From Desulfobacterales bacterium (GTDB lineage Bacteria > Desulfobacterota > Desulfobacteria > Desulfobacterales > JAUYIZ01), in assembly GCA_030688615.1 (NCBI GenBank), contig JAUYIZ010000069.1, positions 1,230 to 65,229 on the forward strand: a stretch of DNA of 64,000 bases, in the 5' to 3' direction. Within the stretch, counting starts at the first letter, position 1. Each line of letters starts with the position of its first letter. The position numbers and the translations under genes were made by a program. Shown piece after piece: positions 9,792-64,000 of the stretch. The notes beneath the pieces were generated by a model. That model was not told the DNA's origin and did not search any database. It saw only the letters and a list, made by a program, of their open reading frames with translations.

Positions 9792-9836
9792 TCTTCCCCT
9801 CCGCAGAGGTTAGAAAAGGGCAGTGGTGCCACCGCT

Positions 9837-47287: not shown

Positions 47288-47416
47288 CAGATTTAGTAGC
47301 ATTTTGGCTGGTAAATTCTTGTTTCGGGAGAGTTCGGGGAGCCTGTCGAGGCTCGAACGGAAAGTATCCCGAATCTCACATAATCGTCGAGATGTGACTT
47401 TTCAAATTTGTTTTGC

Positions 47417-47444
47417 ATGGGCTCGATTCCCGTATCCCGCTCCA
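47417..47444 (+). other. tRNA (or tmRNA) 3'-end fragment: T-arm + acceptor 3' strand + CCA; candidate att remnant
   Basis: ATGGG-CTCGATT-CCCGT (T-stem/loop/stem, with loop position 54 C instead of T), then ATCCCGC-T-CCA. The complementary 5' acceptor strand GCGGGAT is not found within ~100 nt upstream, so it is a fragment and not a gene. Confidence 0.45.
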
Positions 47445-47587
47445 TCTCTTTTTTCCCAGTTTTAAATCCCTCAACACCTTACGAAAAATCAACCGTAACT
47501 CATTCATTTATCCTTTGTTACAATTCAAGGGTATACAAGTCAATCCAAGTTACCCAAAGTTCACTAAGTGCCCCTTTTCAGAAATTT

Positions 47588-47607
47588 AAGTGGCAAAAAA
47601 GTGGCAA
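47588..47607. repeat. direct repeat AAGTGGCAA x2 (11-bp period) upstream of the HTH gene
   Basis: ttAAGTGGCAAaaAAGTGGCAAgaa, read directly. It lies 23-42 nt upstream of the ATG at 47630, just before the AAGGAGGAG SD. Confidence 0.6.
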
Positions 47608-47629
47608 GAATTCACAAAGGAGGAGAATC

Positions 47630-48205: not shown

Positions 48206-48393
48206 TCTTTAATATGGTGGCTCTTACTTCCCCCGCTCTTATTTCCAGGGTATTTATCCGGTCTTATTATTTTGAAAGTGAGACTTTCGGAATTTGATCC
48301 GGGGCTAAGGCATTTGCCTTGAGGTCGCTGTCGTCTGCTATGCAGAAGGCGACATTATAGTTACAATGTCACCGAATGAAGGAATTATAATAG

Positions 48394-49239
48394 ATGACAT
48401 TAGTCCGAATGCCTAATTCAGAATCGAATATCCATACTGCGATTTCCCCAGTATTTGCATGGAATGATAACAAAAGTCCTCGCGTTGTTGGCACAGCTAT
48501 TCTTTTAGGGCCGTGTCTCGCTTTAACGGCGTTGCATGTAGTCGAAGATTTTGTGTGCCGAAATAGGCAGGAAGCCGAGGTGAATGTCAATGTCGCCGTG
48601 TACCATGCTTTTACAGGTGCGGCATGGTATGTCAGAAGAACTTGGGCGACAACTCATACTGATGCAGCCTTCTTGGGGCTCAGGCCCCAAAATGATGCAG
48701 CAAAAAATTTTAAATGGCACCGTGTCGGAATAAATCTTCATTTACCAAAGCCCGGAGAAAAAATTTTTGCTGCAGGTTTTCGTCACTCTAAAATCGATGA
48801 TGTGGATGAGGGATTCAATCAGGAGGGAATTACTGTGGTTAAGGCTAGCTTAAGTCTTCAAACCGTGAATGGAACTGTGCGGGAGTCATACGGATCTAAG
48901 CATGAGGGCCATTTGGATTTCCCCTGTTTTCAGTGCAATGCGAAATTCGATTCACAGATGAGCGGAGGGCCGGTCTTGGATGAAAGCGGATACTTGCGCG
49001 GACTTGTGTGTACGAGCTTCGAGTTCGACTCAACCGATATGTCTGAACCGGTTTCCTTTGTCGCAGGCATTCTGCCTGTTATGGCTATTAAAATTGATCG
49101 AACTTTACCAGAGCTTAACGAAGTTTCCCCCTATCATGTTCTTGATTTGGCAAGGAATGGATTCTTACCAGTAATGGGCCATGAACGGGTAATGATAACG
49201 GATCTCAAAGAAGGGCGAACCAGAATAGAATTTAAATGA
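48394..49239 (+). CDS. cytoplasmic trypsin-like (S1/Trypsin_2) serine protease
   Basis: His in LALTALHVVED, Asp in HTDAAFLGL and Ser in SQMSGGPVLDESG (GDSGGP-like). No signal peptide. Confidence 0.65.
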   Translation: MTLVRMPNSESNIHTAISPVFAWNDNKSPRVVGTAILLGPCLALTALHVVEDFVCRNRQEAEVNVNVAVYHAFTGAAWYVRRTWATTHTDAAFLGLRPQNDAAKNFKWHRVGINLHLPKPGEKIFAAGFRHSKIDDVDEGFNQEGITVVKASLSLQTVNGTVRESYGSKHEGHLDFPCFQCNAKFDSQMSGGPVLDESGYLRGLVCTSFEFDSTDMSEPVSFVAGILPVMAIKIDRTLPELNEVSPYHVLDLARNGFLPVMGHERVMITDLKEGRTRIEFK

Positions 49240-49366
49240 ATGGCATAATCGTCGGTTCCCGACACCAAATCCCGCCCAAATGCTTTGTAGGGCTTTCCCC
49301 TGATTAATCCTTCAGACTTGGCTCTTTCTTTGTTATAATTTGTTTTTCTCTGGAAACTTCGTATAA

Positions 49367-49618
49367 ATGAAAAAAAATAGGCCGCAGCATTTTGCGGCGA
49401 CGGAGCGCATTATGAAGGCCGCCAAAACGGCAGAGAAGTGGTGGACAATTGACCAAATTGCAGACTATCTCCAAGTATCAAAGGAGAAAATCTACAAACA
49501 TTGCCAAAGGGGAAAGATGCCCGCTTCCAAATTCGGGGGACAGTGGCGGTTTGATAAAAAGGAAGTCGATGCTTGGCTAAGAAAACAACGTCCAAGCATG
49601 AATAAAAATAAGAAATAA
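49367..49618 (+). CDS. excisionase-family HTH DNA-binding protein
   Basis: WWTIDQIADYLQVSKEKIYKHCQRGKMPASKFGGQWRFDKKEVDAWL is the canonical HTH_17 pattern. 83 aa. Confidence 0.75.
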   Translation: MKKNRPQHFAATERIMKAAKTAEKWWTIDQIADYLQVSKEKIYKHCQRGKMPASKFGGQWRFDKKEVDAWLRKQRPSMNKNKK

Positions 49619-49785: not shown

Positions 49786-50301
49786 GTGCCAGAACCGATA
49801 CACGGCAAATTAAAACGATCTCTGGATGCGGCCGAAGGCTTGTATCACCGCCTTGTACTGCTTGTGGGTGAGGCAGGTTCCGGGAAGACTGGCGTTCTTC
49901 AGAAAGTTGCCGAAGAATTCGGGACATCTGTCGTCAATGTTAATCTGGCGCTTTCAAGCGAGATGCTTGATATGACGACGAAGCAGCGGTCACTGCGACT
50001 GCCGGGTATTCTCGACCAAATCGTGGCCAAACTTCGAGCACCGGTAGTCCTGGACAATCTCGAAATCCTTTTCGACAAGGACCTCAAGCAGGACCCATTG
50101 CGGTTACTTCAAGGGCTTTCAAGAAATCAGACTGTACTGGCTTCGTGGAACGGAACCTTGAACGGAGTGAGGCTGTTATATGCCGAAACAGGTCATCCCG
50201 AATACCGTAGCTACGACGCGGTCGATGCGCTGATCGTGGGCATGGATGGCGCTGCCACGGTCGTTTCGGCAAAAAACAATAGAGAGGCAGGCCAAGCATG
50301 A
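49786..50301 (+). CDS. brxF: small P-loop protein, BREX type 3 BrxF-like
   Basis: 171 aa. Walker [11 protein letters not shown], Walker B-like [13 protein letters not shown] start 6 nt after AAGGAG. Its stop overlaps the start of the large brxC-like ATPase (ATGA). Confidence 0.6.
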
Positions 50302-53300
50302 AATACGGAGACCTTATCCAATTCGACCCGATTGAGTCGGTCGTTCAGTTGCGTGACGCCGATAAATCGAGCGCGGCGCATCATTTGGTAAACACCTATG
50401 TCATTTCAGAAGAAATGGCCGAACGGCTCACGCAGCTTGTCATCCCTCAGATGCAGTTCGACCAGCCGGTTGACAATAAAGGCCTGCTGGTGGTCGGTAA
50501 CTACGGGACCGGTAAATCGCACTTGATGTCGGTGGTCTCCAGCATTGCTGCAGATGCCGCCCTGCTGGAAGAGCTGAAGAACGAAGGCGTCCGCGCTGCA
50601 GCCACCAAGATTGCCGGCCGTTTTAAAGTTATTCGTACTGAGATCGGTGCCACCACCATGTCTCTGCGCGACATTCTGGTAGCCGAGTTGGAAGAAAACC
50701 TCGAAAAGCTCGGTGTCGAATATGTTTTCCCTGAAGCGGGGACTATCACCAGCCACAAACGGGCATTCGAAGACATGATGGTCAAGTTCGGCCAGGTCTT
50801 CCCCGAACACGGCATGCTGCTGGTAGTCGATGAGCTGCTCGACTATCTTCGCACGCGCAAGGATCAGGAACTTATTCTCGATCTGAACTTTCTACGCGAA
50901 GTTGGCGAGGTCTGCAAGGATCTGCGCTTCCGAATCATGGCAGGTGTTCAGGAAGCCATTTTTGACAGCCCGCGCTTCGCCTTTGTCTCCGACAGTATCC
51001 GTCGCGTGAAAGACCGCTTCGAGCAGATCCTTATTGCCCGCAACGACGTCAAATTCGTGGTGGCTGAGCGCCTGCTCAAGAAGACCGCCGAGCAGCAGGC
51101 TAAGATTCGCGACCATCTCATTCCTTATGCTAAATACTACAGCGGGCTCAATGAGCGAATGGACGAGTTTGTCCGGCTCTTCCCGGTGCATCCCGATTAC
51201 ATCGATACCTTTGAGCGGGTCACCGTTGTGGAAAAACGAGAAGTACTCAAAACCTTGTCCATGGCCATGAAGGGCCTCCTAGGAAAGGCCGTGCCACAGG
51301 AGGAACCTGGCCTAATCGCATTCGACAGTTACTGGAAAACGCTCAAGCAAAATGCTTCCTTTCGAGCTATTCCAGAAATCAGAGCGGTCATCGATTGCAG
51401 CCAGGTGTTGGAATCCCGCATCGAGAACGCTATCAGCCGCAAGCAATACAAGCCGATGGCGCTACGCCTGATCTATGCGCTGTCTGTTCACCGCCTAACT
51501 ACCGGCGACATCTATGCGCCTATGGGTGCATCCGCCGAAGAATTTCGCGATCGCCTTTGTCTATTTGATCCGCTGATCGTTGAAATGGGCAGCGACGAGC
51601 CCGACAAGGATCTGCAGACCCATGTGGAAACGGTGCTGCGAGAGATTCATAAAACAGTCAGCGGCCAGTTCATCTCCTTCAATGCCGACAACAGCCAGTT
51701 CTATCTTGATCTTAAGAAGACTGACGACTTCGACGCCCTGATCGACAAACGGGCTGAGAGCTTGGGCCAAGCTCAGCTCGACCGTTTCTACTACGAGGCT
51801 CTCAAGCGGGTTATGGAATGCCAGGACACCACCTACGTGACTGGCTACAAGATTTGGCAGTACGAACTAATCTGGCAGGAACGCAAGGTAGCCCGTAGCG
51901 GGTACCTTTTTTTTGGCGCACCGAATGAACGCTCTACCGCCGTCCCGCAGAGAGACTTCTACCTATACTTCATCCAACCCAACGATCCGCCCCGTTTCAA
52001 GGACGACAAGGTCAATGATGAGGTTTTCTTCCGACTGAAAGACACGGATGAGGAATTCCAGACTGCGCTGAAGAGCTACGCTGCTGCCTTGGACCTTGCA
52101 GCCACCTCATCGGGCCACGCCAAAGCCACTTATGAATCCAAAGCCAACGGTTTTCTGAAGAAGATGGTCCATTGGTTGCAGAAGCACTTAACGGATGCCT
52201 TCGAGGTCAGCTATCAGGGCCGCACAAAATCCATGACGGAATGGACCAAGGGCAAAGCCATCCGCGACCTGGCTGGCCTTTCGCCCCAAGAGACTATTAA
52301 CTTTCGCGATATGGTGAGTACCGTTGCTGGCTTGTGCTTGGCGCCAAACTTCGAGAACCAGGCTCCACACTACCCTCTCTTTTCGGTCCTGATCACCGGC
52401 AACAATCGAGCCCAGGCAGCGCAGGACGCCCTGCGTGCCATCGCCGGGCAGAATCGCACCAAACAGGCCACTGCCGTGTTGGACGCACTGGAACTGCTCG
52501 ACGGCGAGAGGATCGACCCCTACAAGTCGAAATATATCAAGTTCATCATCGATGTCGTCAAGGCCAAGGGGCACGGCCAGGTGGTCAACCGCACCGAGAT
52601 AATCCAGGACGACCACGGTCTTGAGTATATGAACCCGGGAGGCTCGCGCCTGGAACCGGAATTGGTCATCGTCCTAGTGGCCGCGCTGGTTTACTCCGGC
52701 GATATTGTGCTCTCCATTCCTGGCAAGAAATTCGACGCCACCGGGCTACAGCAGCTTGCTGCGACCAACATGGACGAGCTAGTCCGCTTTAAGCACCTGG
52801 AACAGCCCAAGGAATGGAACTTACCCGCGCTTAAGGCACTGTTCGAACTGCTCGGCATGACGCCGGGTATGGCCCAGCTCATCACTCAAGGGAAGGATGA
52901 GCCGGTGCAGAATCTGCAACAAGCGGTGGGTAAGATCGTCAAGCGCATTGTCATGACCCAGCAGAGCCTACGCGAAGGACTTTCCTTCTGGGGCCTGGAT
53001 CTGTGCGCGAGTAGCGACCTGGCCAGCCGGGCCAACGGGCTGGATGATGCCAAAGGCTTCTTTGAATCGCTTCAGGTCTATTCATCTCCGGGCAAGCTTA
53101 AAAACTTCCGCTACAGCGCTCCCGAAGTTTTGGTCCACGAAAAAGCTCTCAAGGCTCTTGATGAACTGGACGCCCTGCGCGTGTTCATCATGGACCACAG
53201 TTCGACGGCGTCTTGGCTCTCTACTGCCGAAGCGGTGCTACCCGCCGACCATGACTGGGTGGATCGCACGAAGACCACCCGGCAGGATGTGCTGGATTCC

Positions 53301-54029
53301 CTCAAAGAGGTGGATCTGACCGAGCTGGCAAGCCGATCCCAAACCATTGGGGCCAAGATGCAAAAGCTGAAAAAGGATTACACCGTCGCCTATATCGGCC
53401 TGCACACCAAAGCCCGGCTGGGCGTGAACGACGACAAACGAAAAGCGGGCTTGCTTAACGATCAGCGGTTGCAAACCCTGCTCAAGCTTGCCGTGATCGA
53501 CCTGATGCCCAGGCAGCAGCTTACCGATTACCAGAACCGGCTGGCCGGTCTGAAGAGCTGCTTCACCCTGACCGAGCAAAACCTCGACGCAACGCCGATC
53601 TGCTCGCATTGTGGGTTCCGGCCTTCGGTAGAAACCGACGCGGCGGCAGGCACACAGATGATCGACCAGATGGATATCCAGCTCGACGCCATGGTGGCAG
53701 CTTGGACCTCCAGCATTCTCAGCAACCTGGAGGATCCGATCACTCAGGCTAACATGGATTTACTGAAGATCGACGACCGCCATCCGCTGGAGGTCTTCAT
53801 CAAATCAAAAGAACTCCCGGTGCCGTTGGACAGTAATTTCGTCCATGCCCTGAAGGAAGTACTCTCCGGTCTGGTCAAAGTGACCATCAAGGCTCAGGAG
53901 CTGCAACAGGCCCTGCAGGTCACCGATGGTACAGCCACTCCGGCCGAGATGAAGAAACGTTTTGATGCGTACATTGATCGGCTCATTAAGGGCAAGGATC
54001 CGGCAAAAGTACGGATAGTGGTGGAGTAA
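50298..54029 (+). CDS. brxC: large P-loop ATPase, BrxC/PglY-like
   Basis: 1243 aa. N-terminal [12 protein letters not shown] then Walker [12 protein letters not shown] and Walker [12 protein letters not shown]. The size, position after brxF and long helical C-terminus fit BREX BrxC-class proteins. Confidence 0.6.
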
Positions 54030-54031
54030 TT

Positions 54032-55918
54032 ATGGATATTGAGACATCCAGTGCTATCAGGCTGTTCTTTCCCAATCCATCACTGACATTGGTCTATTAC
54101 GAGGCCTTGGCGAATGCATTGGACGCTGGTGCAACAGAAGTATTTATCGATATAGAAGTGCAAGCATTTGATAAGCCCGATACGCTAAAAGTTACCGTTA
54201 CGGACAATGGCGATGGTTTCACCGATGTGAACTTTGACCGCTTTAAAACGCTGTTGAAACCCAGAGACAAGTTTCATAAAGGTTTAGGACGACTTGTCTT
54301 TCTCAACTACTTTGAGAGAGTCGAAATCACTAGCGTCTGGGGTAAGAAACAAAGAAACTTCACGTTTAAAAGTGGTTTCAGCGATAAGGCGCCTATTCAA
54401 GATGTACAGGTGAAGCAGCCAAACAAAACGTCATTAACATTTACCGGCTTTTCCAAAGAGCGAGTCAAAGCTTATGACGATCTTAAGCCGGATGCTCTAA
54501 AGCCAATGATCATCGAACAGTTTTTGCCTACGCTTGATGCACGTAAGCGAGAAGACAAGACATTTAAGATCGTCCTTAGCTTGGCAACCAATGAAGTTAA
54601 CTCACAGAAGGAATTCTTCCCTCACGAGACCACGATAACACCCGACGACTTGCCGTCGATGACTAGGGTAACAATCAAGGATGAAAGCCTGGACGCCATT
54701 TCGTCTATTGAGATGTTCTATCATATTAAACAGGTAGCCGGTAGAGGAAGTTCCCTCACTGCTTTCAGTATTGATGGGCGAACAATACCAGCAAGCCTGA
54801 TACCCGAATCATCATTCCCGCTAGGTTACTTTTGCGTTTTTCTTTTTGAATCGGAAATGTTTCACTCCAACACCGATGGTGCGCGCCAAAAGCTTGTGCT
54901 GCCTGATGGCTTGCAAGAAACACGCCTTTATCGCGTATTGAGCCGTGAACTCGGCAAGGTGTTGTCAGAGAATATTCCTCAGATTACCGAAAAAAACGAA
55001 AAGACCAAAGCGCAGTTCGAAGAAAGATTTCCGCACCTGCTCGGCTACTTTGAGAAGAATACCGTTGGTCTGATTGATCGGGACGACGCTTTGACTATTG
55101 CTCAACAAAAATTCTTTCGAGTTCAGAAAGAAGTGCTTCAATGCGAAACACTTAGTGAATCAGATTATGCGAAGTCACTTGAGCTGTCGTCTCGTACGCT
55201 GACGGAGTACATCTTGTATCGCGACAAAATTATTAGCCGCATGAAAACTATGACCGAAGACAATGCTGAGTCGGATATACACAACCTGATCGTTCCTCGT
55301 TACAAGGAATTTGCACAAGGCGCCATGCCATCAGAGATATATCAGAACAATGCATGGTTGCTTGACGACAAGTTTATGGTGTTTCAGACCATTCTCAGTG
55401 AGAAGAGAATGGATACCATTATCAACGCCATACGTCTTGATGAAGAAAGTGTCGGTGATACGAGCAGACCCGATATTACCATGATTTTTTCGGCAGACCC
55501 GGCTGATGTGAAGGCTGTTGATGTTGTCGTTGTCGAGATCAAAAAGAAAACGAACGATGAAAAAGAAAATCAATATGCCATCAATCAATTGCTTGATCGG
55601 GCTGTAAAGCTGGTTGAGCACTGCCCTCACATCCAAAGAATTTGGTACTACGCAGTCATCCAGGTCGGCGACACTATGGCAGTGCGCCTGCGCCAACAAA
55701 ACTGGGCACCGCTGTTCTCGATGGGAAAAGTATTCTATCAGGAGTTTAAAACTGCGCGGCAGGATGGAAGCCTAGTCCCAACACCAACATTTGTTATGTC
55801 GTTTGATGCCATCGTGGCAGATGCCAAGTGCAGGAATCACACTTTTCTCGAAATCTTGCGAGAAGGCATGAAGAAGTACGCTGAAGAACAGGATTCTGAT
55901 GGCTGGGGCAGAGACTAA
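54032..55918 (+). CDS. GHKL (Bergerat-fold, MORC/HATPase_c-like) ATPase with C-terminal PD-(D/E)xK-like nuclease motif
   Basis: N-box YYEALANALDAGA, G1 box VTDNGDGF, G2 KGLGRLVF. C-terminal ESDIHNLIVP ... RPDITMIF ... VDVVVVEIKKK ... QLLDRAV has an E/PD/ExK/Q arrangement, as in restriction-endonuclease-fold (Shedu/DUF4263-like) domains. Confidence 0.6.
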   Translation: MDIETSSAIRLFFPNPSLTLVYYEALANALDAGATEVFIDIEVQAFDKPDTLKVTVTDNGDGFTDVNFDRFKTLLKPRDKFHKGLGRLVFLNYFERVEITSVWGKKQRNFTFKSGFSDKAPIQDVQVKQPNKTSLTFTGFSKERVKAYDDLKPDALKPMIIEQFLPTLDARKREDKTFKIVLSLATNEVNSQKEFFPHETTITPDDLPSMTRVTIKDESLDAISSIEMFYHIKQVAGRGSSLTAFSIDGRTIPASLIPESSFPLGYFCVFLFESEMFHSNTDGARQKLVLPDGLQETRLYRVLSRELGKVLSENIPQITEKNEKTKAQFEERFPHLLGYFEKNTVGLIDRDDALTIAQQKFFRVQKEVLQCETLSESDYAKSLELSSRTLTEYILYRDKIISRMKTMTEDNAESDIHNLIVPRYKEFAQGAMPSEIYQNNAWLLDDKFMVFQTILSEKRMDTIINAIRLDEESVGDTSRPDITMIFSADPADVKAVDVVVVEIKKKTNDEKENQYAINQLLDRAVKLVEHCPHIQRIWYYAVIQVGDTMAVRLRQQNWAPLFSMGKVFYQEFKTARQDGSLVPTPTFVMSFDAIVADAKCRNHTFLEILREGMKKYAEEQDSDGWGRD

Positions 55919-58761
55919 TGGGGACGGACATGAGCATGGGTGATTTGTTCGAAGACCAGCTAGAAGAAAATCAAAAGATAAGGTCAGGACCGGTGACCTG
56001 CCTCGGCATGACTTTCGAAAACGACGAGGCACGCCGCATCCATTTTACCGAGGAACTGCGCAAGAAGCTGCAGGACCCGGAGTTTCGCAATATCGAAGGT
56101 TTTCCCATCGGCAGCGAGGAGGACATTTTGAACCTGAGCGATCCGCCGTACTACACCGTTTGCCCGAACCCGTGGCTCACCGACTTCATCGCCGAGTGGG
56201 CGGTGCAAAATCCGGAACAGCCCGACGGCTACCACTATCACCGTGAGCCATTTGCTGCCGATGTGAGCGAGGGGAAAAACGACCCAATTTACAACGCCCA
56301 TTCCTATCACACCAAGGTGCCGCACAAGGCCATCATGCGTTACATCCTCCATTACACACAGCCGGGGGACATCGTGTTTGACGGGTTCTGTGGAACCGGG
56401 ATGACGGGAGTAGCGGCGCAGATGTGCGGCAACCGCGAAGTAGTTATGTCTCTTGGTTACCAGGTGAAGCCGGACGGAACCATTTTGCAGGAAGAGACGG
56501 ATGAAGATGGTAAAAAGGTTTGGCGGCCGTTTTCGAGGTTGGGCGTTCGCCGAGCTGTACTGAATGATCTTTCACCAGCGGCAACCTTCATCGCCTACAA
56601 CTACAACACACCTGTTGATGTAAGTGTTTTTCAGCGTAGGTACAGAGAAGCCATAAGAGAGTTTAAGAAACAAACAAAATGGATGTGGGAAACTCTACAT
56701 TCAGATGGAAAGACAATAGGCAAAATTAACTATGTTGTATGGTCAGAGGTTTACTCATGTCCAGAATGCTTAAAAGAAATTGATTACTTCACGCATGCGT
56801 TCACAAATAGTGCTGATGGTTCATTTGAATACACACCGGAATTTGCTTGCCCCAATTGTGGATCTTTATGCGCAAAAAGTCCCACAAAAAAATCTTTGGC
56901 TCACAAGCTATCTAGGGTTAGGCAGACGCTGTTTGATGAGAAGCTTCAAGAGACGATAAGAACGCAAAAAAGATTACCTGTTCTTATAAATTACAGTATT
57001 GGCACGAAGAGATTCCAGAAATTATTAGATTTGTCAGATCAAGAAAATATTTTACGAATTGAACGGCTTTCTATTATCAATAATATTCCTATCGACAGGA
57101 TGCCTGAAGGAGATGAATCGCGTCGAAATGACGACGAGGGTATGAGTCACGTACATCATTTCTATACGAAGAGAATTTTGGCTTCGCTGTCAATTTTGGA
57201 GAAAGTCATCGGCGAAGATCCGCAGTTGAACTTTCTAATGGGGAGCACGCTACCGAAACTTACTATTTTAAATCGCTACATGCCGCAGCATGGTGGGCGA
57301 GCATTGGTGGGGCCGATGGCTAACACGCTTTATGTGCCACCTGTTGGTGTTGAAAATAATGTTATAGACCAACTTGAGTTTCAATCAAAAAAAATTATTC
57401 AGGCATTAACACCGCTCTCAGGATCAATTATCTGTACTCATGCAGCACAATCAGTGTCGATTCCGGAGGCTTCTGTGGACTATATATTTATAGATCCGCC
57501 ATTTGGAGCCAATATCATGTATTCGGAATTGAGTTTCATGAGGGAGGCTTGGCTAAGAGCTAAAACTAACAATAAGCCAGAGGCTGTCGAAAACAAAACC
57601 CAAAAAAAGGGGATTGATGAGTATCGTCATTTAATGACTGAATGTTTCGCATCGGCTTTCAAGTGCCTCAAACCTGGCCGTTGGATGACGGTCGAATTTT
57701 CAAACACAAAAGCAAGTGTTTGGAATAGTATTCAAAATTCGCTCTCTGATGCTGGATTCATCGTCGCATCAGTAGCAGCACTTGATAAAACCCGTGGTGG
57801 TTTGCACTCAATGCTTGGGCCTACTGCCGTCAAACAAGACCTAGTCATCTCGGCCTACAAACCCAATGGAGGGTTTGAAGAACGCTTTCAAAAGGAGGCG
57901 CAAACCGAAGAAGGCGTGTGGGTTTTTGTCCGAACGCATTTGAAGTATCTGCCGGTGACCAAGCAACAGGGAGCCTTACTGCAGTTCGTTCCGGAACGTG
58001 ACCCACGCATCCTGTTCGACCAGATGGTGGCCTTCTACGTCCGCAAGGGCTACCCCGTGCCAATTTCCAGCCAGGAGTTCCAGATCGGGCTCGCGCACCG
58101 CTTCATCGAACGTGACGGCATGTATTTCCTGCCGGATCAGGTGGCCGAATACGATCGCAAGAAAATGACAGCGGGTATTTCTGGTGAATATGTCGATGCA
58201 TTATTTGTTAAGGATGAATCTACAGCTATCGAATGGCTTAGAGCACGCATTCGCAAAAAGCCACAGACATTTTCCGACATTAACCCACAGTTCATGCAGC
58301 AGCTCGGCGGGTGGAGCAAGAACGAGGCTCAGCTTGACCTGCGCGAGCTGCTGAACCAGAACTTCCTCTGTTACGACGGCAAAGGCCTGGTGCCGGAGCA
58401 GATCCACGCCTACCTCTCCACCAACTGGAAAGAGCTGCGCAATCTGCCCAAGGATGCCCCAGCCCTGGTCGCTAAGGCCCGCGACCGTTGGTACGTTCCC
58501 GATCCCAACAAGGCCGGCGACCTCGAGAAACTGCGCGAGAAGGCCTTGCTCAAGGAGTTCGAGGAATACAAAGAGGTCAAGAAGAAGCTCAAGATCTTCC
58601 GTCTGGAAGCTGTCCGCGCCGGATTCAAGAAAGCATGGCAGGAGCGAGACTACGCCGTCATCGTTGCCGTGGCCGACAAGATTCCAAACAACGTCCTGGA
58701 AGAAGATCCCAAACTACTGATGTGGTACGACCAGGCGGTTACAAGAATGGGAGGAGAATAA
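55918..58761 (+). CDS. large N6-adenine/N4-cytosine-type DNA methyltransferase with internal zinc ribbon (PglXI-like)
   Basis: YHTKVPHKAIMRYILHYTQPGDIVFDGFCGTGMTG (motif X/I) and DYIFIDPPFG (motif IV) are separated by ~350 aa containing CPEC ... CPNC. The start overlaps the GHKL stop (TAATG). Confidence 0.7.
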   Translation: MGTDMSMGDLFEDQLEENQKIRSGPVTCLGMTFENDEARRIHFTEELRKKLQDPEFRNIEGFPIGSEEDILNLSDPPYYTVCPNPWLTDFIAEWAVQNPEQPDGYHYHREPFAADVSEGKNDPIYNAHSYHTKVPHKAIMRYILHYTQPGDIVFDGFCGTGMTGVAAQMCGNREVVMSLGYQVKPDGTILQEETDEDGKKVWRPFSRLGVRRAVLNDLSPAATFIAYNYNTPVDVSVFQRRYREAIREFKKQTKWMWETLHSDGKTIGKINYVVWSEVYSCPECLKEIDYFTHAFTNSADGSFEYTPEFACPNCGSLCAKSPTKKSLAHKLSRVRQTLFDEKLQETIRTQKRLPVLINYSIGTKRFQKLLDLSDQENILRIERLSIINNIPIDRMPEGDESRRNDDEGMSHVHHFYTKRILASLSILEKVIGEDPQLNFLMGSTLPKLTILNRYMPQHGGRALVGPMANTLYVPPVGVENNVIDQLEFQSKKIIQALTPLSGSIICTHAAQSVSIPEASVDYIFIDPPFGANIMYSELSFMREAWLRAKTNNKPEAVENKTQKKGIDEYRHLMTECFASAFKCLKPGRWMTVEFSNTKASVWNSIQNSLSDAGFIVASVAALDKTRGGLHSMLGPTAVKQDLVISAYKPNGGFEERFQKEAQTEEGVWVFVRTHLKYLPVTKQQGALLQFVPERDPRILFDQMVAFYVRKGYPVPISSQEFQIGLAHRFIERDGMYFLPDQVAEYDRKKMTAGISGEYVDALFVKDESTAIEWLRARIRKKPQTFSDINPQFMQQLGGWSKNEAQLDLRELLNQNFLCYDGKGLVPEQIHAYLSTNWKELRNLPKDAPALVAKARDRWYVPDPNKAGDLEKLREKALLKEFEEYKEVKKKLKIFRLEAVRAGFKKAWQERDYAVIVAVADKIPNNVLEEDPKLLMWYDQAVTRMGGE

Positions 58762-58764
58762 TAC

Positions 58765-60687
58765 ATGATTACTAAATGGAAGATTTTTAACTTTAAATCC
58801 ATTCGAGAGGAAACCGAGCTGGATTTGGGCCCGCTTACGATCTTTGCGGGTGCGAATAGCAGCGGCAAGAGCACATTTATTCAATCTATCCTACTTGTTG
58901 CCCAGACGTTGGCCCATAAAGTCGGATCTCGTTCCGTCGTATTGAATGGCGCCCTTACCAGCTTGGGCCAGTTTGATGACCTGAAATCTAGCGATAGCGA
59001 GTCGGATCAAATCACCATTAAATGCACCTGCCGCCCGACGTCGGGGCAGGAGACTGCAATTCCGAGGCGTTCCCAATTTGCTTCTCGTAGCGCTTTTTAT
59101 TACGGGCAGCGCGCCAATCAGCTGCAAGAAATCGCTTGTGAGATTTCTTTCGACGCTAATCCCTCAAGTTCTCAGCGTGATCTGCTTCAGATCCAACCTC
59201 GGCTTTTTGCTACGCAATTGAATTGCATATCAAGAGACGAAGATAACGTTGATCAGAAAGCGGACATCGCCATTCACCACTCCGACAAGGCCGTTTCCGA
59301 AATTGAAGGAGCTGATGGCATTGGTGAAATCGATGACCAGGTACGCGCCAGTTTAGCCTACGCCGTTGAACTAGACGAAAGCTCCATGGCCGAGGTCAAA
59401 GATGACTTTCGCTCGGCTAAGCCTATCGGCTGTATTTTGAGACACTTCCTTCCCGAGAGAATCATATACGCTATCGATACCGTTGAAGAGACTTCGAACG
59501 CCATTACGCTGGCACTCCAAGACGATGGTCGCCGCCCATTGGTCTTGCGCCGCATGATGGGCAGAGAGATTATTCTACCTAAAGAGATCATTGCGGTTTT
59601 GCGCGAAGTACTCGAAGGCACAATCGATTTGGATCAAACATTCAAGGACAAATATAAGCAGAAGTCATTGTTTGGTTCTGAGTCTGAAACTTTTACATAT
59701 CGGGCATGGCAAGAACATCTACGCAGCCTGCCACGCGAGGATCGCCTGAAGATTCAGCAGGTGCTGCGTGAGCGTGAGGATCTTTTTGCCCGCATTCATG
59801 AGGCCATGAAAGCATCAATGGCTGAGAAGTCAGAGACGCATGCCGTTGTCCAGCCTCGACCACCGCGCTTAATAACGGAAGCCACCTGGTACCTGGAAAA
59901 CTTCTTTGCCTCATCTTTGAAATACCTCGGACCATTGAGGGATGCGCCCAAACCGCTATACCCACTCGCACCAGGAGCTGACCCGTATGACGTAGGTCTG
60001 CGCGGTGAACACACAGCTTCCATTCTTGATTTGCACAAGAACAAAAAAGTCCGCTACATTCCATCGGTAAATTTCAAAGATCCGGTAATTGATCGCAAGA
60101 CGGTGACCCGGTCACTCGAAGCGGCGGTTATCGATTGGCTCCAATATCTGAGTGTGGCACGTATAGTAAATAGCCGGGACCGGGGTAAGCTCGGTCATGA
60201 ACTGAAGGTAGGCCTTTCTAATTCGGATAGCACATACGACCTCACGCATGTGGGCGTAGGCGTTAGTCAAGTTTTACCGATTCTCGTTATGTGTCTTCTG
60301 GCCGATGCCGACTCCACAATGGTTTTTGAGCAACCGGAGCTGCATTTACATCCAAAAGTTCAGACTCTACTAGGTGATTTCTTTCTTTCGATGGCGTTAT
60401 GCAACAAGCAATGCATTGTTGAGACCCACAGCGAATATATTATTGATCGCCTCCGTTTCCGAATTGCAGCGGCATCACCCAAGAAGGAGTTGAACAGCCA
60501 GACCAAGATTTATTTCGTGGAAAAGCCATCGAATGGGTCATCTTTCCGGGAAGTGGCGATTAACGAGTATGGAGCCATTTCAGAGTGGCCGGAAGGGTTC
60601 TTTGACCAGTCCCAACAACAGGCCGAAGAGATCCTAAGAGCGGCAGCGATGAAACGGAAAGCAAGCCGCGGGAAGAATGATGCATAG
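58765..60687 (+). CDS. ABC/OLD-type AAA ATPase (AAA_15/21-like) with DUF3696-like C-terminus
   Basis: Walker A FAGANSSGKST, Walker B/D-loop MVFEQPELHLHP, H-loop VETHSEY, and a C-terminal EWPEGFFDQ motif. Starts 3 nt after the methyltransferase stop. Confidence 0.65.
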   Translation: MITKWKIFNFKSIREETELDLGPLTIFAGANSSGKSTFIQSILLVAQTLAHKVGSRSVVLNGALTSLGQFDDLKSSDSESDQITIKCTCRPTSGQETAIPRRSQFASRSAFYYGQRANQLQEIACEISFDANPSSSQRDLLQIQPRLFATQLNCISRDEDNVDQKADIAIHHSDKAVSEIEGADGIGEIDDQVRASLAYAVELDESSMAEVKDDFRSAKPIGCILRHFLPERIIYAIDTVEETSNAITLALQDDGRRPLVLRRMMGREIILPKEIIAVLREVLEGTIDLDQTFKDKYKQKSLFGSESETFTYRAWQEHLRSLPREDRLKIQQVLREREDLFARIHEAMKASMAEKSETHAVVQPRPPRLITEATWYLENFFASSLKYLGPLRDAPKPLYPLAPGADPYDVGLRGEHTASILDLHKNKKVRYIPSVNFKDPVIDRKTVTRSLEAAVIDWLQYLSVARIVNSRDRGKLGHELKVGLSNSDSTYDLTHVGVGVSQVLPILVMCLLADADSTMVFEQPELHLHPKVQTLLGDFFLSMALCNKQCIVETHSEYIIDRLRFRIAAASPKKELNSQTKIYFVEKPSNGSSFREVAINEYGAISEWPEGFFDQSQQQAEEILRAAAMKRKASRGKNDA

Positions 60688-61729
60688 TCTGCCTAGCGTA
60701 ACAATTGACGCAGGCGTGCTCGCGGTGCCTCATATTAATTGTGCCAAGGATGACGCATTCCAGTATGTGGATACGCTCCTTGATTGGAGCAAGTTGCTTG
60801 ATGAACCGTGGGTCGCCATTTGCATGAGTGAGCTGGCCTCTGAGACTCTTCTCTCCGATGGCTTGTTCCCAATGAGAGAGCAACTCAGAGAACTATTCAA
60901 TGCTCATGGTATAGTGGAATACGATGTCAATACCGTCGCCAGAATTGCAAATCAGCTTCTAGCAATTACTCCATCCTTTGAGACCTACTATCGGATCAAG
61001 GATGTCTTGTCAGAGCATCTGGAAACAGATCCGGATGTTATTCGGCTTACAACTCATGCCGGGCTCCAATCTGATCTTGCCCGATGCATAACGCTGATCG
61101 CTGTCTTGCGGCGCCACTGCTCTCAACCTCTTGGCGGCCATTCACTCATACTGAGAGAGGCGCCCACGCAGGTGATCCAATTAAGGGCCCAGATCCACGA
61201 GCTCGAACATACCAGAGATGATATTCCTGCTTTGCCGTGCCCGCCAGAGTTCTTTGAAGGCGATGTGCTGGTCTGTGACAATTTTCATGGGCTTATCGAA
61301 TGTCTCGATGAGTCAGCAATACTAGTCGGAGCGTCTGATGCTGTTGGAATGAAGCTTGCCGTCCGAATTGCCCTGTTCAAGTATGCCATTGCGCAAGGCG
61401 ATACCCATGATTGGGACGGCGTGATTGTTCCAACCATAGGGCCTGAATTTCTGGAGTTGTGCCAGCAGGTTTGTTCAGAGCAAAGAGATTCATTGCCTCC
61501 AAAAATTCTCCGATCAATCGTAGAGGCCATCAATGGGTTAAACCTTCCGGCTGTGCACGCGCTCCGTACGGGATCGGGTGGTGGTGATCCGCAACGGTTG
61601 CGAGGCTTGGATAGGGCACAGCGTCGCGATATCGACAAGGAATTCCATCTCCATTACTGGGAATGCGCCGACGGGACAGTCGAATTGGCGTCAGTCGTTT
61701 ATCACAATGATTTTTCAATTCCTAGGTGA
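60677..61729 (+). CDS. 350-aa protein of unknown family, translationally coupled to the ATPase
   Basis: Overlaps the ATPase gene by 11 nt. I recognise no motif with confidence. N-terminal VTIDAGVLAV is reminiscent of a PIN-type first strand, and C-terminal RRDIDKEFHLHYWECADGTVELASVVYHNDF is reminiscent of a RelE/ParE-like fold. Both resemblances are speculative. Confidence 0.5.
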   Translation: MMHSLPSVTIDAGVLAVPHINCAKDDAFQYVDTLLDWSKLLDEPWVAICMSELASETLLSDGLFPMREQLRELFNAHGIVEYDVNTVARIANQLLAITPSFETYYRIKDVLSEHLETDPDVIRLTTHAGLQSDLARCITLIAVLRRHCSQPLGGHSLILREAPTQVIQLRAQIHELEHTRDDIPALPCPPEFFEGDVLVCDNFHGLIECLDESAILVGASDAVGMKLAVRIALFKYAIAQGDTHDWDGVIVPTIGPEFLELCQQVCSEQRDSLPPKILRSIVEAINGLNLPAVHALRTGSGGGDPQRLRGLDRAQRRDIDKEFHLHYWECADGTVELASVVYHNDFSIPR

Positions 61730-61734
61730 TGACG

Positions 61735-64000
61735 ATGCAGGATGACTGGCAATTCAGCACCGTTCATAACAGCGCCTGCAAGGTCATCGAAGAACAGACC
61801 TTGTGGGGGCAAACGGTTTGCCGTGTCTGGCTGCCGAACCAGGACACGGTGGTACGCGTGTCCCGCTCCGCCTTGCGACCGTTTAATACCGACCTGCAAC
61901 CGGAAATTGAGGCTGGACGGATTTCCTATGTGGCGGCTGCAGCCAAGGTGGCCGAAGTGCTCGAAGGTTCCACCCGCGCCAGTGACGGTCATGTGCTGCT
62001 AGCGCCCATGGAGTCCAATGTCATCCCGTTGCCGCATCAGATTCATGCGTTGTCTCGAGCGATCTCCGGTGATCGCGTGCGTTATCTACTGGCCGACGAG
62101 GTTGGTCTAGGTAAAACCATCGAGGCCGGTCTGGTCATGCGCGAACTCAAGCTACGCGGGTTGGTGCGCCGGACATTGGTTGTCTCACCGAAAGGTATCG
62201 CTACCCAGTGGGTTGCAGAAATGCATACCCACTTCAATGAACAGTTCCAGCTCGTTTTGGGTGACGATATCAGCACACTGCAACGCCTGACTCAAGGGGT
62301 TAATCACAGGAGCTCGGCCTGGTCGATGTTCGATCAGGTCATCGTTACTCTCGATTCAGTTAAGCCTATGGACAAGCGGCGCGGATGGACTGCGGAACGC
62401 GTTGCCGAATACAATCACAGTCGGTTTGAAGATCTGATTACCGCCGGTTGGGATCTGGTAGTGGTGGACGAAGCGCACCGTCTGGGCGGCAACACGGATC
62501 AAGTGGCCCGCTATAAACTCGGGAAAGGGCTGGCAGCGGCCGCGCCCTATGTGTTACTGCTTTCGGCCACGCCCCACCAGGGTAAAACCGATGCCTTCCA
62601 TCGTTTGATGAATCTGCTGGATGAGGATACATTTCCGGATGTCGAGAGTGTCTCCCGCGACCGGGTGGCCCCGTATGTCATCCGCACAGAAAAGCGCAAG
62701 GCCGTCGATATTGATGGCAAGCCGCTCTTTAAGTCCCGCCGCACGCAGATGGTGCCGGTGGCCTGGGAGAGTCGTCATCACCTGCAGCAGCTCCTTTATG
62801 AGGCTGTGACGGACTACGTGCGCGAGGGCTACAACCAGGCCCTGCGGGAGAAAAAGCGTCACATCGGTTTTCTGATGATCCTGATGCAGCGTCTGGTAGT
62901 CTCCAGCACCCGGGCGATCCACACCACACTTGAGCGACGGCTGGCGGTACTCAAGGATGGTGAGCAGCAAGCCAGTCTGCGCCTGGCGGCACTTGATAAC
63001 GACGGAGATAGCACGGAGAACTTCGATGAGTTGTACGATATGGATGGCCAAGAGCTTCTCGATGAGTTGCTGAAATCCCATGTGTCGGCACTGCAGAACG
63101 AAGGCAGCCATGTGGAGACTCTGCTTGAGGCAGCGGTCCGTTGCGAACAGACAGGACCGGACGCAAAGGCCGAGACGCTGATTGAATGGATTTATCAATT
63201 GCAGGCCGCGGAAAACGAGCCGGATCTGAAGGTGTTGATTTTTACTGAGTTTGTGCCGACCCAAGAGATGCTCAAGGAGTTTCTTGAAACGCGCGGCATA
63301 TCAGTTGCCACCCTGAACGGCTCCATGGATATGAAGAAACGCAAGCAGGCCCAAGATGCTTTTCGCAAGACACACCGTGCGCTCGTTTCAACCGACGCGG
63401 GCGGCGAAGGCTTGAACCTGCAGTTTGCCCACGTTATCATCAACTACGATATCCCCTGGAACCCGATGCGGCTGGAACAGCGGATTGGCCGCGTGGATCG
63501 TATCGGCCAGCCCAAGACGGTGCGGGCAATCAATTTCGTTTTTGAGGATTCGGTCGAGTTCCGCGTCCGTGAAGTGCTGGAGAAGAAGCTATTGGTGATC
63601 TTTAACGAGTTCGGTATCGACAAGACTGGTGACGTGCTCGACTCCGCCCAGGCTGGTGAATTGTTCGAGGGTGTATTCGCCTCTGCGATCCTGAATCCTG
63701 ATGGTATCGAGACATCTGTCGATCACATGGTAACCCGGATTCGGGATGAGATTCAACAGGCGCGCGAGTCGTCGGCCATCTATGGTATCTCCGAAGAACC
63801 GGATGTGCAGACCGCTGAACGTCTACGCTCTCATCCGCTGCCTCATTGGGTGGAGCAGATGACGGTAGGTTATCTCAACTCCCATGGTGGTGTGGCCAAC
63901 CGCAAGCGTTCCTGGTGGGAACTGCATTGGCCTGATGGTCAGGAATATCGCAAAGCTGTGTTCAACGCTCGGGAGGCGGATCGGCTGATCGATGCCACGT
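61735..64000 (+). CDS. SNF2/RapA-like superfamily-2 helicase (BrxHII-like), 3' end beyond window
   Basis: Hand translation is open from ATG 61735 to the window end. Motif I LLADEVGLGKTIEA, motif II VVVDEAHRLGG, LLLSATPHQGK, STDAGGEGLNLQ, and motif VI QRIGRVDRIGQ. It is absent from the ORF track because no stop occurs in the window. Confidence 0.8.
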   Translation, partial: MQDDWQFSTVHNSACKVIEEQTLWGQTVCRVWLPNQDTVVRVSRSALRPFNTDLQPEIEAGRISYVAAAAKVAEVLEGSTRASDGHVLLAPMESNVIPLPHQIHALSRAISGDRVRYLLADEVGLGKTIEAGLVMRELKLRGLVRRTLVVSPKGIATQWVAEMHTHFNEQFQLVLGDDISTLQRLTQGVNHRSSAWSMFDQVIVTLDSVKPMDKRRGWTAERVAEYNHSRFEDLITAGWDLVVVDEAHRLGGNTDQVARYKLGKGLAAAAPYVLLLSATPHQGKTDAFHRLMNLLDEDTFPDVESVSRDRVAPYVIRTEKRKAVDIDGKPLFKSRRTQMVPVAWESRHHLQQLLYEAVTDYVREGYNQALREKKRHIGFLMILMQRLVVSSTRAIHTTLERRLAVLKDGEQQASLRLAALDNDGDSTENFDELYDMDGQELLDELLKSHVSALQNEGSHVETLLEAAVRCEQTGPDAKAETLIEWIYQLQAAENEPDLKVLIFTEFVPTQEMLKEFLETRGISVATLNGSMDMKKRKQAQDAFRKTHRALVSTDAGGEGLNLQFAHVIINYDIPWNPMRLEQRIGRVDRIGQPKTVRAINFVFEDSVEFRVREVLEKKLLVIFNEFGIDKTGDVLDSAQAGELFEGVFASAILNPDGIETSVDHMVTRIRDEIQQARESSAIYGISEEPDVQTAERLRSHPLPHWVEQMTVGYLNSHGGVANRKRSWWELHWPDGQEYRKAVFNAREADRLIDAT

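Follow-up and report, generated by a model that had tools for sequence, protein, structure and literature searches.

Previously described GHKL ATPases with nuclease-like tails

Prokaryotic MORC-like proteins of the paraMORC3 group were described by Iyer, Abhiman and Aravind (2008; PMC2292703) as carrying a GHKL domain, an S5 domain and a conserved C-terminal globular tail of restriction endonuclease (RE) fold with an E-D-ExK signature. They are prevalent in proteobacteria and bacteroidetes and are often stand-alone, with no conserved gene neighbourhood; profile searches started from the paraMORC3 tail recovered RecB-family nucleases (PMC2292703). VcSduA of Vibrio cholerae, a "GHKL-Shedu" protein whose defence activity as a single gene has been validated by experiment, was reported by Adams et al. 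(PMC12137116), who equate VcSduA-like proteins with paraMORC3. The substitutions E27A and K557A abolish defence by VcSduA, and its nuclease was assigned by modelling and one mutant (PMC12137116). Canonical Shedu SduA (DUF4263), for which structures from Bacillus cereus and Escherichia coli are available, is also a single-gene system, in which a variable N-terminal domain controls a C-terminal PD-(D/E)xK nuclease; 602 cases of a Shedu gene within an R-M locus have been reported, and 87 within a BREX locus. A catalogue of the auxiliary nucleases of BREX exists (PMC12839542), and BxaP, which is embedded in type 3 BREX, acts independently (Duan et al., Nat Commun 2024, PMC10799925).

Here we compare with these systems a 628-aa protein encoded between brxC and pglXI of a type 3 BREX operon in the window, i.e. 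the whole 64,000-nt stretch of DNA that was analyzed. It is probably a paraMORC3/"GHKL-Shedu" protein (Shedu type I-D): an anti-phage nuclease that acts on its own, from a single gene carried as cargo in BREX-3.

Organization of the BREX-3 operon

All of the features described below are located on the + strand. A promoter-like site, TTCAGA-17-TATAAT with TG (49311..49339), lies 5′ of a small HTH gene and brxF and is the probable operon promoter; it is a consensus match only, in a region that has fewer such sites than shuffled sequences. The HTH gene (49367..49618) encodes an 83-aa HTH_17 protein (PF12728), and a similar small HTH_17 gene is present ahead of brxF in other BREX-3 loci, including L005 and L007. 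It precedes brxF, encoding the BREX-3 P-loop protein (49786..50301; NCBIfam NF033453, E 1.8e-57; PADLOC BrxF, E 7.7e-61), and brxC/pglY, encoding a DUF6079 protein of 1243 aa (50298..54029; Pfam PF19557, E 0; PADLOC BrxC, E 0).

The gene of the 628-aa protein is followed by pglXI, encoding the BREX-3 methyltransferase (55918..58761; PADLOC PglXI, E 0; Pfam N6_N4_Mtase). This gene is a mosaic, the centre of which (approximately 56770-57470) is low in GC and unmatched in close relatives. A second cargo pair could be distinguished between pglXI and brxHII. It comprises genes for an OLD-type ABC ATPase (58765..60687; AAA_15/AAA_21/DUF3696, NsnB-like, by Pfam and PADLOC) and for its partner, a 350-aa protein (60677..61729) that has no family match in Pfam, PADLOC or NCBIfam and whose stop codon overlaps the brxHII start (ATGA). 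The same pair was found in nine other loci (L045, L094, L104, L108, L117, L120, L126, L129 and L144). The brxHII gene (61729..64000), encoding an SNF2-type helicase, is intact as far as the window reaches and continues past its end; its product shares 52-55% identity with the BrxHII proteins of L001 and L005. Comparison of the locus with Escherichia coli genomes by megablast gave no match.

The 628-aa ORF and its junctions

The ORF at 54032-55918 (+) starts with an ATG and encodes 628 aa. As the earlier note on this DNA had stated, only 2 nt separate the TAA stop of the brxC-like ORF (ending at 54029) from this ATG, which is preceded at a distance of 8-14 nt by the Shine-Dalgarno sequence GGTGGAG. 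At the other end, the TAA stop (55916-55918) overlaps an ATG of the pglXI ORF at 55918 (TAATG). This claimed overlap with the methyltransferase gene is real as sequence, but translation may not begin at 55918, since the ATG conserved with relatives is the one 12 nt beyond, at 55930, which is preceded by GGGGA. The gaps flanking the gene are therefore 2 nt on the brxC side and at most 11 nt on the pglXI side. No + strand terminator or promoter was found between the gene and the flanking operon genes. Judging from this spacing, which bears out the physical packing into the operon proposed earlier, the gene would be co-transcribed with the BREX genes and is probably translationally coupled with them.

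The product contains the GHKL and tail motifs listed in the earlier note, namely YYEALANALDAGAT, VTDNGDGF, HKGLGRLVF, ESDIHNLIVP, RPDITMIF and VVVVEIKKK. It has no match to the PADLOC or NCBIfam BREX models, and its placement outside the canonical BREX-3 set is upheld. The lower GC content of the gene relative to brxC was also confirmed (45.0% versus 55.0%), and a difference of about 10 points is seen in most of 28 BREX-3 loci; by its composition, the gene appears foreign to the operon.

This foreign GC content, together with in-frame stops or splits in six related copies (L036, L037, L047, L070, L074 and L084), might mean that the gene is a passenger in decay, or a selfish gene maintained by addiction, and plays no part in the defence of this host. 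We regard that explanation as extremely improbable: the ORF in the window is intact and keeps every catalytic residue, a good Shine-Dalgarno sequence precedes it within the closely packed operon, and full-length relatives that are 73-86% identical to its product occur across many genera. A close homologue is also carried by Pseudomonas aeruginosa.

The N-terminal GHKL ATPase half

The GHKL (Bergerat-fold) ATPase domain occupies approximately aa 1-175 (54032..54556). Pfam HATPase_c matches the protein with an E-value of 4.7e-7, above the family cut-off. Motif I is formed by E24 and N28, motif II by D58-x-G60-x-G62 and motif III by G84-x-G86. Among 82 family members, with identities down to 23%, residues E24, N28, D58, G60, G62 and G84 are invariant, while G86 is conserved in at least 90% of the sequences.

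In a Foldseek search against the PDB, the AF2 model (pLDDT 91.4) matched Hsp90, SMCHD1, TRAP1, ParE, GyrB and the N-terminal domain of MutL (E 1e-12 to 5e-10, 360-430 columns). These alignments run well past the ATP-binding domain, and a transducer ("S5-like" middle) domain was therefore assigned to approximately aa 176-295 (54557..54916), with boundaries read from the model. It is followed by a helical linker of four long helices (approximately aa 296-405; 54917..55246), which contains conserved YPHL-GYF and SSR-L-EYILYR stretches and aligns with the equivalent region of VcSduA.

Sequence and model thus agree in identifying the protein as a GHKL ATPase with a Bergerat fold and a transducer, as had been proposed. 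The Bergerat fold and transducer are shared with MutL, MORC, SMCHD1, Hsp90 and GyrB, and in MutL, too, a GHKL ATPase is coupled with an endonuclease at the C-terminus. However, identities to these proteins are only 9-16%, their C-terminal domains are different, and the locus has no mismatch-repair or chaperone context.

Relationship to VcSduA, paraMORC3 and Shedu

A VcSduA family profile was built from full-length relatives retrieved with the first 399 aa of VcSduA. Its comparison with the profile of the window family by hhalign gave a probability of 100% and an E-value of 2.6e-46 over 553 columns, and the C-terminal domain alone aligned with the VcSduA tail at 97% (E 9.3e-11, 189 columns). 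In these alignments E24 corresponds to E27 of VcSduA, and K504 to K557. One member of the window family, ALFI_RS05020 of Alistipes finegoldii, is listed in the VcSduA hit table of Adams et al.; the window protein and its close relatives do not appear in this table, which covers the genomes that those authors searched and was compared over at most 400 aa per entry. On the strength of the profile alignments, we classify the 628-aa protein as a remote full-length homologue of VcSduA, and so as a member of a type of anti-phage protein known before.

Both proteins share one order of domains (GHKL, transducer, helical region, E-PD-ExK tail), and each is encoded by a single gene without a fixed partner, located beside other defence systems. 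They differ in sequence (approximately 21% identity), in length (673 aa for VcSduA, the window protein being about 45 aa shorter) and in setting, VcSduA residing in VSP-II beside GrwAB and the window gene in BREX. BLASTP with VcSduA picks up only the motif II-III region of similarity (E 1e-11). The T1-like phage range and the direct, non-abortive mode of action have been demonstrated only for VcSduA, and at approximately 21% identity the phage range and the trigger are not transferable to the window protein.

The protein can also be assigned the paraMORC3 architecture, based on the description by Iyer et al. and its equation with VcSduA-like proteins by Adams et al. The domain make-up, taxonomic spread and stand-alone habit of paraMORC3 all match those of the window family, whereas the 2008 description includes no BREX context. 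The pointer in the earlier note to MORC-like ATPases predicted to work with R-M systems was thus apt. Canonical Shedu SduA is a tetramer, and its N-terminal domain is unlike that of the window protein. Tetramer modelling is not supported for VcSduA (PMC12137116).

The C-terminal domain as a putative nuclease

The C-terminal domain (aa 406-628; 55247..55915) is a putative PD-(D/E)xK nuclease domain, distinguished on the basis of motifs, the structural model and the hhalign comparison with VcSduA. Its key residues are E413 (55268-55270), D481 of the P480-D481 pair (55472-55474), E502 (55535-55537) and K504 (55541-55543). All four are invariant in the 82 family sequences, down to 23% identity, a degree of motif conservation that is far above chance. 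In the AF2 model the tail has the topology helix (with E), strand (D), strand (ExK), helix; D481 is placed just ahead of a strand, E502 inside the next strand and K504 just past the end of that strand, after which a long helix follows. This order of secondary structures and the placement of the motifs fit the PD-(D/E)xK core (alpha-beta-beta-beta-alpha-beta), which has D at the start of strand 2 and (D/E)xK in strand 3. The E/PD/ExK layout read in the tail by the earlier note is a conserved signature, and the region bearing it shares homology with the nuclease domain of VcSduA, a Shedu-type protein validated by experiment.

Database comparisons of the tail gave weaker results. A Foldseek search of the PDB with the tail model (pLDDT 82, the first 80 residues being of modest confidence) yielded no match at E < 1e-3; the best matches were weak ones to proteins with the restriction endonuclease fold, i.e. 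McrC (7vsr_M; probability 0.6, E 0.066) and RPB5. Solved Shedu structures were absent from the top 50 PDB matches, which is weak negative evidence, and the isolated tail had no significant match in BFVD. No DUF4263 or PDDEXK match was found by hmmscan in the window protein, 32 family tails or 10 distant members, and the PADLOC Shedu models matched neither the window protein nor the family tails. Sequence searches of the PDB with the whole protein and with the tail profile retrieved nothing, and hhalign comparison of the tail with an alignment of YhcG PDDEXK proteins, taken from the cargo of the junctions, was null. However, the positive control VcSduA and four of its relatives likewise have no DUF4263 or PADLOC SduA match by hmmscan, so this method is too insensitive to decide on Shedu/DUF4263 membership. 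The structural and HMM comparisons thus brought no refutation of a nuclease fold and no significant Foldseek or Pfam match to one. Since Foldseek, Pfam and YhcG give no support, the predicted fold rests on the motifs, the topology and the homology to VcSduA.

Could the GHKL ATPase instead be joined to a C-terminal domain that binds DNA or serves as a sensor but has no catalytic activity? The protein might then, for example, compact DNA in the manner of MORC, sense in the manner of a chaperone, or regulate the operon. The missing Foldseek, Pfam, PADLOC and PDB-sequence matches would be compatible with this, as would the GHKL modules of MORC and SMCHD1 (the latter among the top structural matches), which function without a nuclease. 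We nevertheless find it very improbable, given that E413, D481, E502 and K504 are invariant and positioned as in a PD-(D/E)xK core, that the homologous tail of VcSduA loses defence through K557A, and that the paraMORC3 tail led Iyer et al. to RecB-family nucleases.

The GHKL gene as probable cargo of BREX-3

The BREX-3 loci most closely related to that of the window (L092-L095; BrxC 89-91% identical at the protein level and 84-86% at the DNA level) lack the GHKL gene. Their homology with the window ends at 54025-54031 and resumes at 55984-55990, leaving clean, gene-sized breakpoints. A survey of 56 sampled brxC|pglXI junctions (53 from metagenomes and 3 from plasmids) revealed no GHKL gene at this position, and it was missing from all seven plasmid BREX-3 loci; in one canonical plasmid BREX-3 locus, pglXI begins 36 nt after brxC. 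Other cargo of at least 1 kb was present at 30 of the 56 junctions, encoding Schlafen, YhcG PDDEXK, PD-T7-3/BxaP-like, AAA_13, OLD-ABC and other proteins.

Among the 80 closest species-level homologues, 46 have no BREX-3 gene nearby, while 34 are located at exactly the brxC|pglXI junction, in at least four clades. The latter count becomes 30 if five identical contigs are counted once, and the sample is biased towards relatives of a BREX-embedded query. Outside BREX, where most of the family diversity is found, the genes are often situated amid housekeeping genes, and no recurring partner was detected: 111 neighbours match 137 Pfam families, none of them more than three times. Some of these copies lie 0-35 nt downstream of genes of methylation-based systems (Type ISP, HsdR or an MmeI-like MTase). 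In locus L080 an intact GHKL copy is retained beside brxC remnants. Genes encoding 447-aa and 219-aa proteins, which follow the GHKL gene in L005, L010 and L002, were considered as obligate partners and rejected, as neither is found in the window or in most of the loci.

From this distribution, we assign the GHKL gene to cargo at the brxC|pglXI slot and not to the BREX-3 core. The proposal that the gene is integral to BREX and provides a missing effector is opposed by its absence from the closest relatives, the sampled junctions and the plasmid loci, by the unrelated defence genes that occupy the same junction, and by the many homologues that have neither BREX-3 nor a conserved partner. A precedent for autonomous cargo is provided by BxaP, also a rare gene inside the type 3 BREX operon that is found in R-M loci as well. 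It differs in being an unrelated protein (PD-T7-3-like, HEPN-type) that uses the pglXI|brxHII slot and acts by abortive infection.

A more intimate link with BREX-3 has also to be weighed, in which the protein would be an accessory effector, recruited to cleave DNA as an arm of the system or in reserve, under the licence of BREX components. It could respond to PglXI methylation, depend on BrxC for loading, or become active when BREX is inhibited, as PARIS does. Such coupling would agree with the translational packing of the gene between brxC and pglXI (the same in L007 and others), with the occurrence of homologues at this very junction in several clades although BREX-3 is rare overall (approximately 900 taxa; PMC12839542), and with the copies placed directly downstream of methylation-based systems; back-up effectors in BREX have been proposed (PMC12839542). 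One clade recurs in BREX-3 beyond what a random defence-island neighbourhood would give, which leaves room for functional cooperation. Nevertheless, we consider this explanation rather unlikely, because neither the closest BrxC relatives nor any of the junctions sampled carry the gene, most of the family lives outside BREX without a partner, the copy in L080 is intact beside a decayed brxC, VcSduA and BxaP act alone, and the sample in which the junction recurs is the biased one.

We therefore favour a stand-alone nuclease carried as cargo. This reading builds on what was observed or computed here, namely the motifs, the N-terminal fold, the homology with VcSduA, the breakpoints of the insertion and the distribution of the gene; for the nuclease chemistry, dimerisation, trigger and autonomy in this host, we infer the following scheme. 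Like other GHKL enzymes, the protein would dimerise, its N-terminal ATPase domains closing upon ATP binding, and the transducer together with the helical middle region may form a clamp that engages DNA. Binding and hydrolysis of ATP would then gate the C-terminal E-PD-ExK nuclease cutting the invading DNA, as the VcSduA mutants suggest. The gene would have landed in a brxC|pglXI slot used by many different defence genes, the GHKL protein working independently of BREX and BREX independently of it.

Implications for BREX-3 and for the family

The window subfamily comprises hundreds of clusters at 50% identity and was found in 378 species in one scan, yet the annotation of its members goes no further than "ATP-binding protein" or "sensor histidine kinase". 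It escapes PADLOC, Pfam and NCBIfam alike and is therefore undercounted in surveys of defence systems. If the protein is indeed an autonomous nuclease, the finding would be mostly of bookkeeping use in this respect. The cargo reading leaves the BREX effector question unsolved, and only functional coupling to BREX-3 would bear on it. It is conceivable, though quite unlikely in our estimation, that one clade of VcSduA-like GHKL nucleases has adapted specifically to type 3 BREX, landing time and again at the brxC|pglXI junction, and uses the state of PglXI methylation or the engagement of foreign DNA by BrxC to license cleavage. These BREX-3 loci would then possess a true restriction arm, which would offer a tractable handle on how BREX discriminates self from non-self.

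The present comparison documents that defence genes use the brxC|pglXI junction of BREX-3 as a cargo slot, a point to bear in mind wherever BREX-3 operons are cloned or deleted, because the phenotypes observed may stem from such passengers.

The GHKL gene and its operon

The GHKL gene (54032-55918, forward strand) starts with ATG and encodes a protein of 628 aa, in which all peptide strings quoted in an earlier note on this DNA were found. Three neighbouring genes on the same strand were identified as that note had called them: brxF by an NCBIfam match (BREX_3_BrxF, E 1.8e-57), brxC, a 1243-aa ORF with its TAA stop codon at 54027-54029, by DUF6079 and PADLOC BrxC (both E 0), and pglXI by PADLOC (PglXI, E 0). 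The brxC stop codon is separated by 2 nt from the ATG of the GHKL gene, which is preceded by GGTGGAG (8-14 nt upstream), and the GC content of the two genes differs (45.0% in the GHKL gene vs 55.0% in brxC). At the other end, the final A of the GHKL stop codon (TAA, 55916-55918) is also the first base of the ATG of the next ORF (TAATG). This overlap, reported previously, is real as sequence, but the functional start of pglXI may instead be the ATG at 55930, 12 nt downstream, since relatives (loci L045 and L094) conserve it as the pglXI start, with GGGGA upstream.

A candidate promoter (49311-49339) was distinguished upstream of brxF, preceding an 83-aa HTH_17 gene, and no terminator was found between it and the GHKL gene. 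Because the latter is so tightly packed in the operon, its co-transcription from the promoter upstream of brxF is likely. Three genes occupy the region upstream of brxF (47408-49618); their products are an excisionase-like HTH_17 protein of 265 aa, a Trypsin_2 protease of 281 aa and the 83-aa HTH_17 protein. In contrast to Pseudomonas loci, no BrxR/WYL regulator is present there.

Two further non-canonical genes are located between pglXI and brxHII (forward strand, from 61729 and past the window end). The first (58765-60687) encodes an OLD-type ABC ATPase (AAA_15/AAA_21/DUF3696; PADLOC NsnB, E 4e-77) and the second (60677-61729) a 350-aa protein without Pfam, PADLOC or NCBIfam matches. The same pair occupies this position in comparison loci L045, L094, L104, L108, L117, L120, L126, L129 and L144. 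Identity of the 350-aa partner falls to 22-24% in L094 and L129; this protein may represent an effector not described before. The pglXI gene is a mosaic: DNA homology to close relatives (L093, L101) is confined to 55984-56769 and 57471-58767, and the unmatched middle part has a low GC content (41-46%), consistent with a swap of an embedded target-recognition domain.

Protein family and predicted fold

Only the N-terminal ATP-binding domain of the 628-aa protein was recognized by Pfam (HATPase_c, E 4.7e-7); NCBIfam gave weak N-terminal matches (MutL and others) and PADLOC none. Among 1.84 billion cluster representatives searched, 833 relatives were identified (178 at E ≤ 1e-30); almost every complete one has a length of 610-660 aa and can be aligned over its full extent. 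This subfamily escapes PADLOC, Pfam and NCBIfam, and its annotation reads "ATP-binding protein" or "sensor histidine kinase", a new, if modest, observation.

Conservation was assessed in an alignment of 82 relatives, with identity down to 23%. Residues E24, N28, D58, G60, G62 and G84, corresponding to GHKL motifs I-III, are invariant, as is a second group composed of Y393, R397, E413, W442, D445, S456, D481, E502, K504 and A598. The AlphaFold2 model built on this alignment is of high confidence (pLDDT 91.4, pTM 0.81) and matched Hsp90, TRAP1, SMCHD1, GyrB, ParE and the N-terminal domain of MutL in the PDB (Foldseek, E 1e-12 to 5e-10) over 360-430 columns, which span the Bergerat fold plus transducer domain. 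The N-terminal half has the GHKL-transducer fold. Both catalytic centres are intact, and it is highly improbable that the gene is a dead passenger. In several other members of the family (L036, L037, L047, L070, L074, L084) the reading frame is broken by one in-frame stop or divided between two ORFs, reflecting either pseudogenes or assembly errors.

In the modelled C-terminal tail, the E413 helix is followed by short strands, a strand directly after P480-D481, the E502 strand (K504 lies just past it), then a long helix and additional strands. A PD-(D/E)xK core would show this order, and the fold is regarded as putative. With a separate model of residues 405-628 (pLDDT 82), no Foldseek match in PDB or BFVD reached an E-value under 1e-3; the most suggestive were McrC (probability 0.6) and RPB5. 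No nuclease family was found by hmmscan of 32 family tails, a PDB sequence-profile search with the tail was empty, and hhalign of the tail against a YhcG PDDEXK alignment gave a null result. DUF4263 was likewise absent from the family tails in hmmscan; as VcSduA and four relatives, used as a positive control, also lack this match, its absence says nothing either way.

Relationship to VcSduA and paraMORC3

VcSduA is a single-gene "GHKL-Shedu" defence protein of Vibrio cholerae, whose protective effect is abolished by the E27A and K557A substitutions (Adams et al., PMC12137116). It is reported to act directly on phage DNA. Its first 399 aa were used as a query to retrieve full-length family members, 18 of which were aligned for profile comparison. 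In hhalign, the window and VcSduA families matched with a probability of 100% (E 2.6e-46, 553 aligned columns) across residues 14-609 and 17-668, respectively, placing E24 on E27 and E502/K504 on E555/K557. The tail alone also matched the VcSduA family (97%, E 9.3e-11, 189 columns). Moreover, ALFI_RS05020 of Alistipes finegoldii, belonging to the window's family, is listed among the VcSduA matches of Adams et al. Judged from these profiles, the 628-aa protein is homologous over its full length, though remotely (about 21% identity), to a defence nuclease that has been validated as a single gene, and a non-nuclease role, which the null searches with the tail might suggest, seems very unlikely.

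Adams et al. (PMC12137116) equate VcSduA-like proteins with paraMORC3 and Shedu type I-D. The paraMORC3 family, which is common among proteobacteria and bacteroidetes and often encoded by stand-alone genes, combines GHKL and S5 domains with a conserved C-terminal domain containing E-D-ExK motifs (Iyer et al. 2008, PMC2292703), a description that fits the window's family.

The brxC-pglXI junction as a cargo slot

In a canonical plasmid BREX-3 locus (Leisingera), pglXI begins 36 nt after brxC, and the GHKL gene is absent from all seven plasmid BREX-3 loci. We also fetched 80 metagenome loci with the BrxC most similar to that of the window (51-91% identity). The brxC-pglXI junction was visible in 56 loci drawn from these 80 and three plasmid loci, and none of the 56 contains the GHKL gene. 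The gap is below 200 nt in 20, 200-1000 nt in 6, and filled with 1.3-7.8 kb of inserted genes in 30. Defence genes of various kinds make up the inserts: Schlafen/AlbA_2 (14 loci), the YhcG PDDEXK nuclease (PDC-S02; 6 loci), a DUF6978+DUF1828 pair, a PD-T7-3/BxaP-like protein, AAA_13 (PDC-S06), OLD-ABC and SMC-like ATPases.

The closest relatives, L092-L095 (BrxC 89-91% identical as protein, 84-86% as DNA), lack the GHKL gene: homology to the window ends at 54025-54031 and resumes at 55984-55990. In L093 and L094 the gene is replaced by a spacer of about 110 nt including an 11-bp perfect inverted repeat, AGCTTGGTCAC-N7-GTGACCAAGCT (L094, ~13760-13790; L093, ~8290-8320), which might form a hairpin with a regulatory role or mark the slot as a site of recombination. 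The window's whole layout is found only in L045 (Halioglobus). The GHKL gene is thus an insertion at a cargo slot, and this slot is a busy defence-cargo site, which is a new observation.

Distribution of the GHKL gene

Relatives of the GHKL gene were present in 378 species-representative genomes in one scan. Among the best 80, 34 copies lie between brxC and pglXI, or 30 if five identical 2.7-kb contigs are counted once. These contigs (L054, L056-L059; about 2.74 kb, with the 3′ part of the GHKL gene and the 5′ end of pglXI) come from five MAGs of different genera in one study, and probably represent binning contamination that inflates species counts. Co-cargo of the BREX-embedded copies is variable and consists of Schlafen on either side, of an AAA_15 pair, or of two genes for proteins of 447 and 219 aa. 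The 447-aa protein, without a family match, is encoded 4 nt after the GHKL gene in several loci inside and outside BREX-3 (L005, 11889-13884; L002, 11889-13232; L010; L014), sometimes with the 219-aa protein; it may act as a facultative partner or represent cargo in its own right.

No BREX-3 gene was found near the other 46 of the best 80; for 30 of these, the flanking sequence on each side extends for 3 kb or more. In a few non-BREX copies, the gene 0-35 nt upstream encodes a Type ISP enzyme, HsdR, an MmeI-like methyltransferase or a UvrA-like ATPase. No conserved partner emerged from Pfam analysis of 111 neighbours, which match 137 different families, each at most three times, many being housekeeping genes.

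L080, from a Thermodesulfobacteriota chromosome, is a decayed BREX-3 locus in which the GHKL gene was retained: the homologue, intact and 78% identical, is found immediately after guaA and is preceded by three short brxC remnants (9814-9976) matching window positions 50274-50352, 52893-52965 and 53997-54029. The gene also directly follows guaA in L011. Comamonas loci have retained the GHKL gene and a pglXI fragment. In most of 28 BREX-3 loci the GC content of the GHKL gene is lower than that of brxC and brxHII by about 10 points, a drop not seen for Schlafen cargo in these loci. In a neighbour-joining tree, BREX-embedded copies are spread over four or more clades, with non-BREX copies in between. 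One clade shows a marked preference for the brxC-pglXI slot, a further new observation.

The main alternative, to which we give a small probability in view of the strong and repeated association with precisely this junction, is that the BREX-associated clade cooperates functionally with BREX-3; cleavage licensed by BREX in the embedded clade is marginally less probable still. The earlier proposal that the gene supplies the missing BREX effector was not borne out, given its absence from the 56 junctions and seven plasmid loci and the 46 homologues without BREX-3.

Proposed function

We consider it quite probable that the GHKL gene is cargo encoding a VcSduA-like nuclease that cuts phage DNA autonomously from BREX. 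The GHKL domains would dimerise, driven by ATP, the middle region would capture DNA, and the E-PD-ExK tail would cleave phage DNA directly in an ATP-gated manner, as reported for VcSduA.

Comparable cases have been described. BxaP, a rare gene inside type 3 BREX, protects independently (PMC10799925), 87 Shedu genes inside BREX loci were noted in a Shedu classification study, and auxiliary nucleases embedded in BREX operons were catalogued in a 2026 survey (PMC12839542) that makes no mention of GHKL proteins. The architecture was already described in 2008 and the validation of a homologue followed in 2025; there are also precedents for Shedu-type genes in BREX loci and for cargo inside BREX-3. 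The novelty is modest, and lies in a subfamily unseen by PADLOC, Pfam and NCBIfam, in the preference of one clade for the brxC-pglXI slot, and in this slot as a site of defence cargo.
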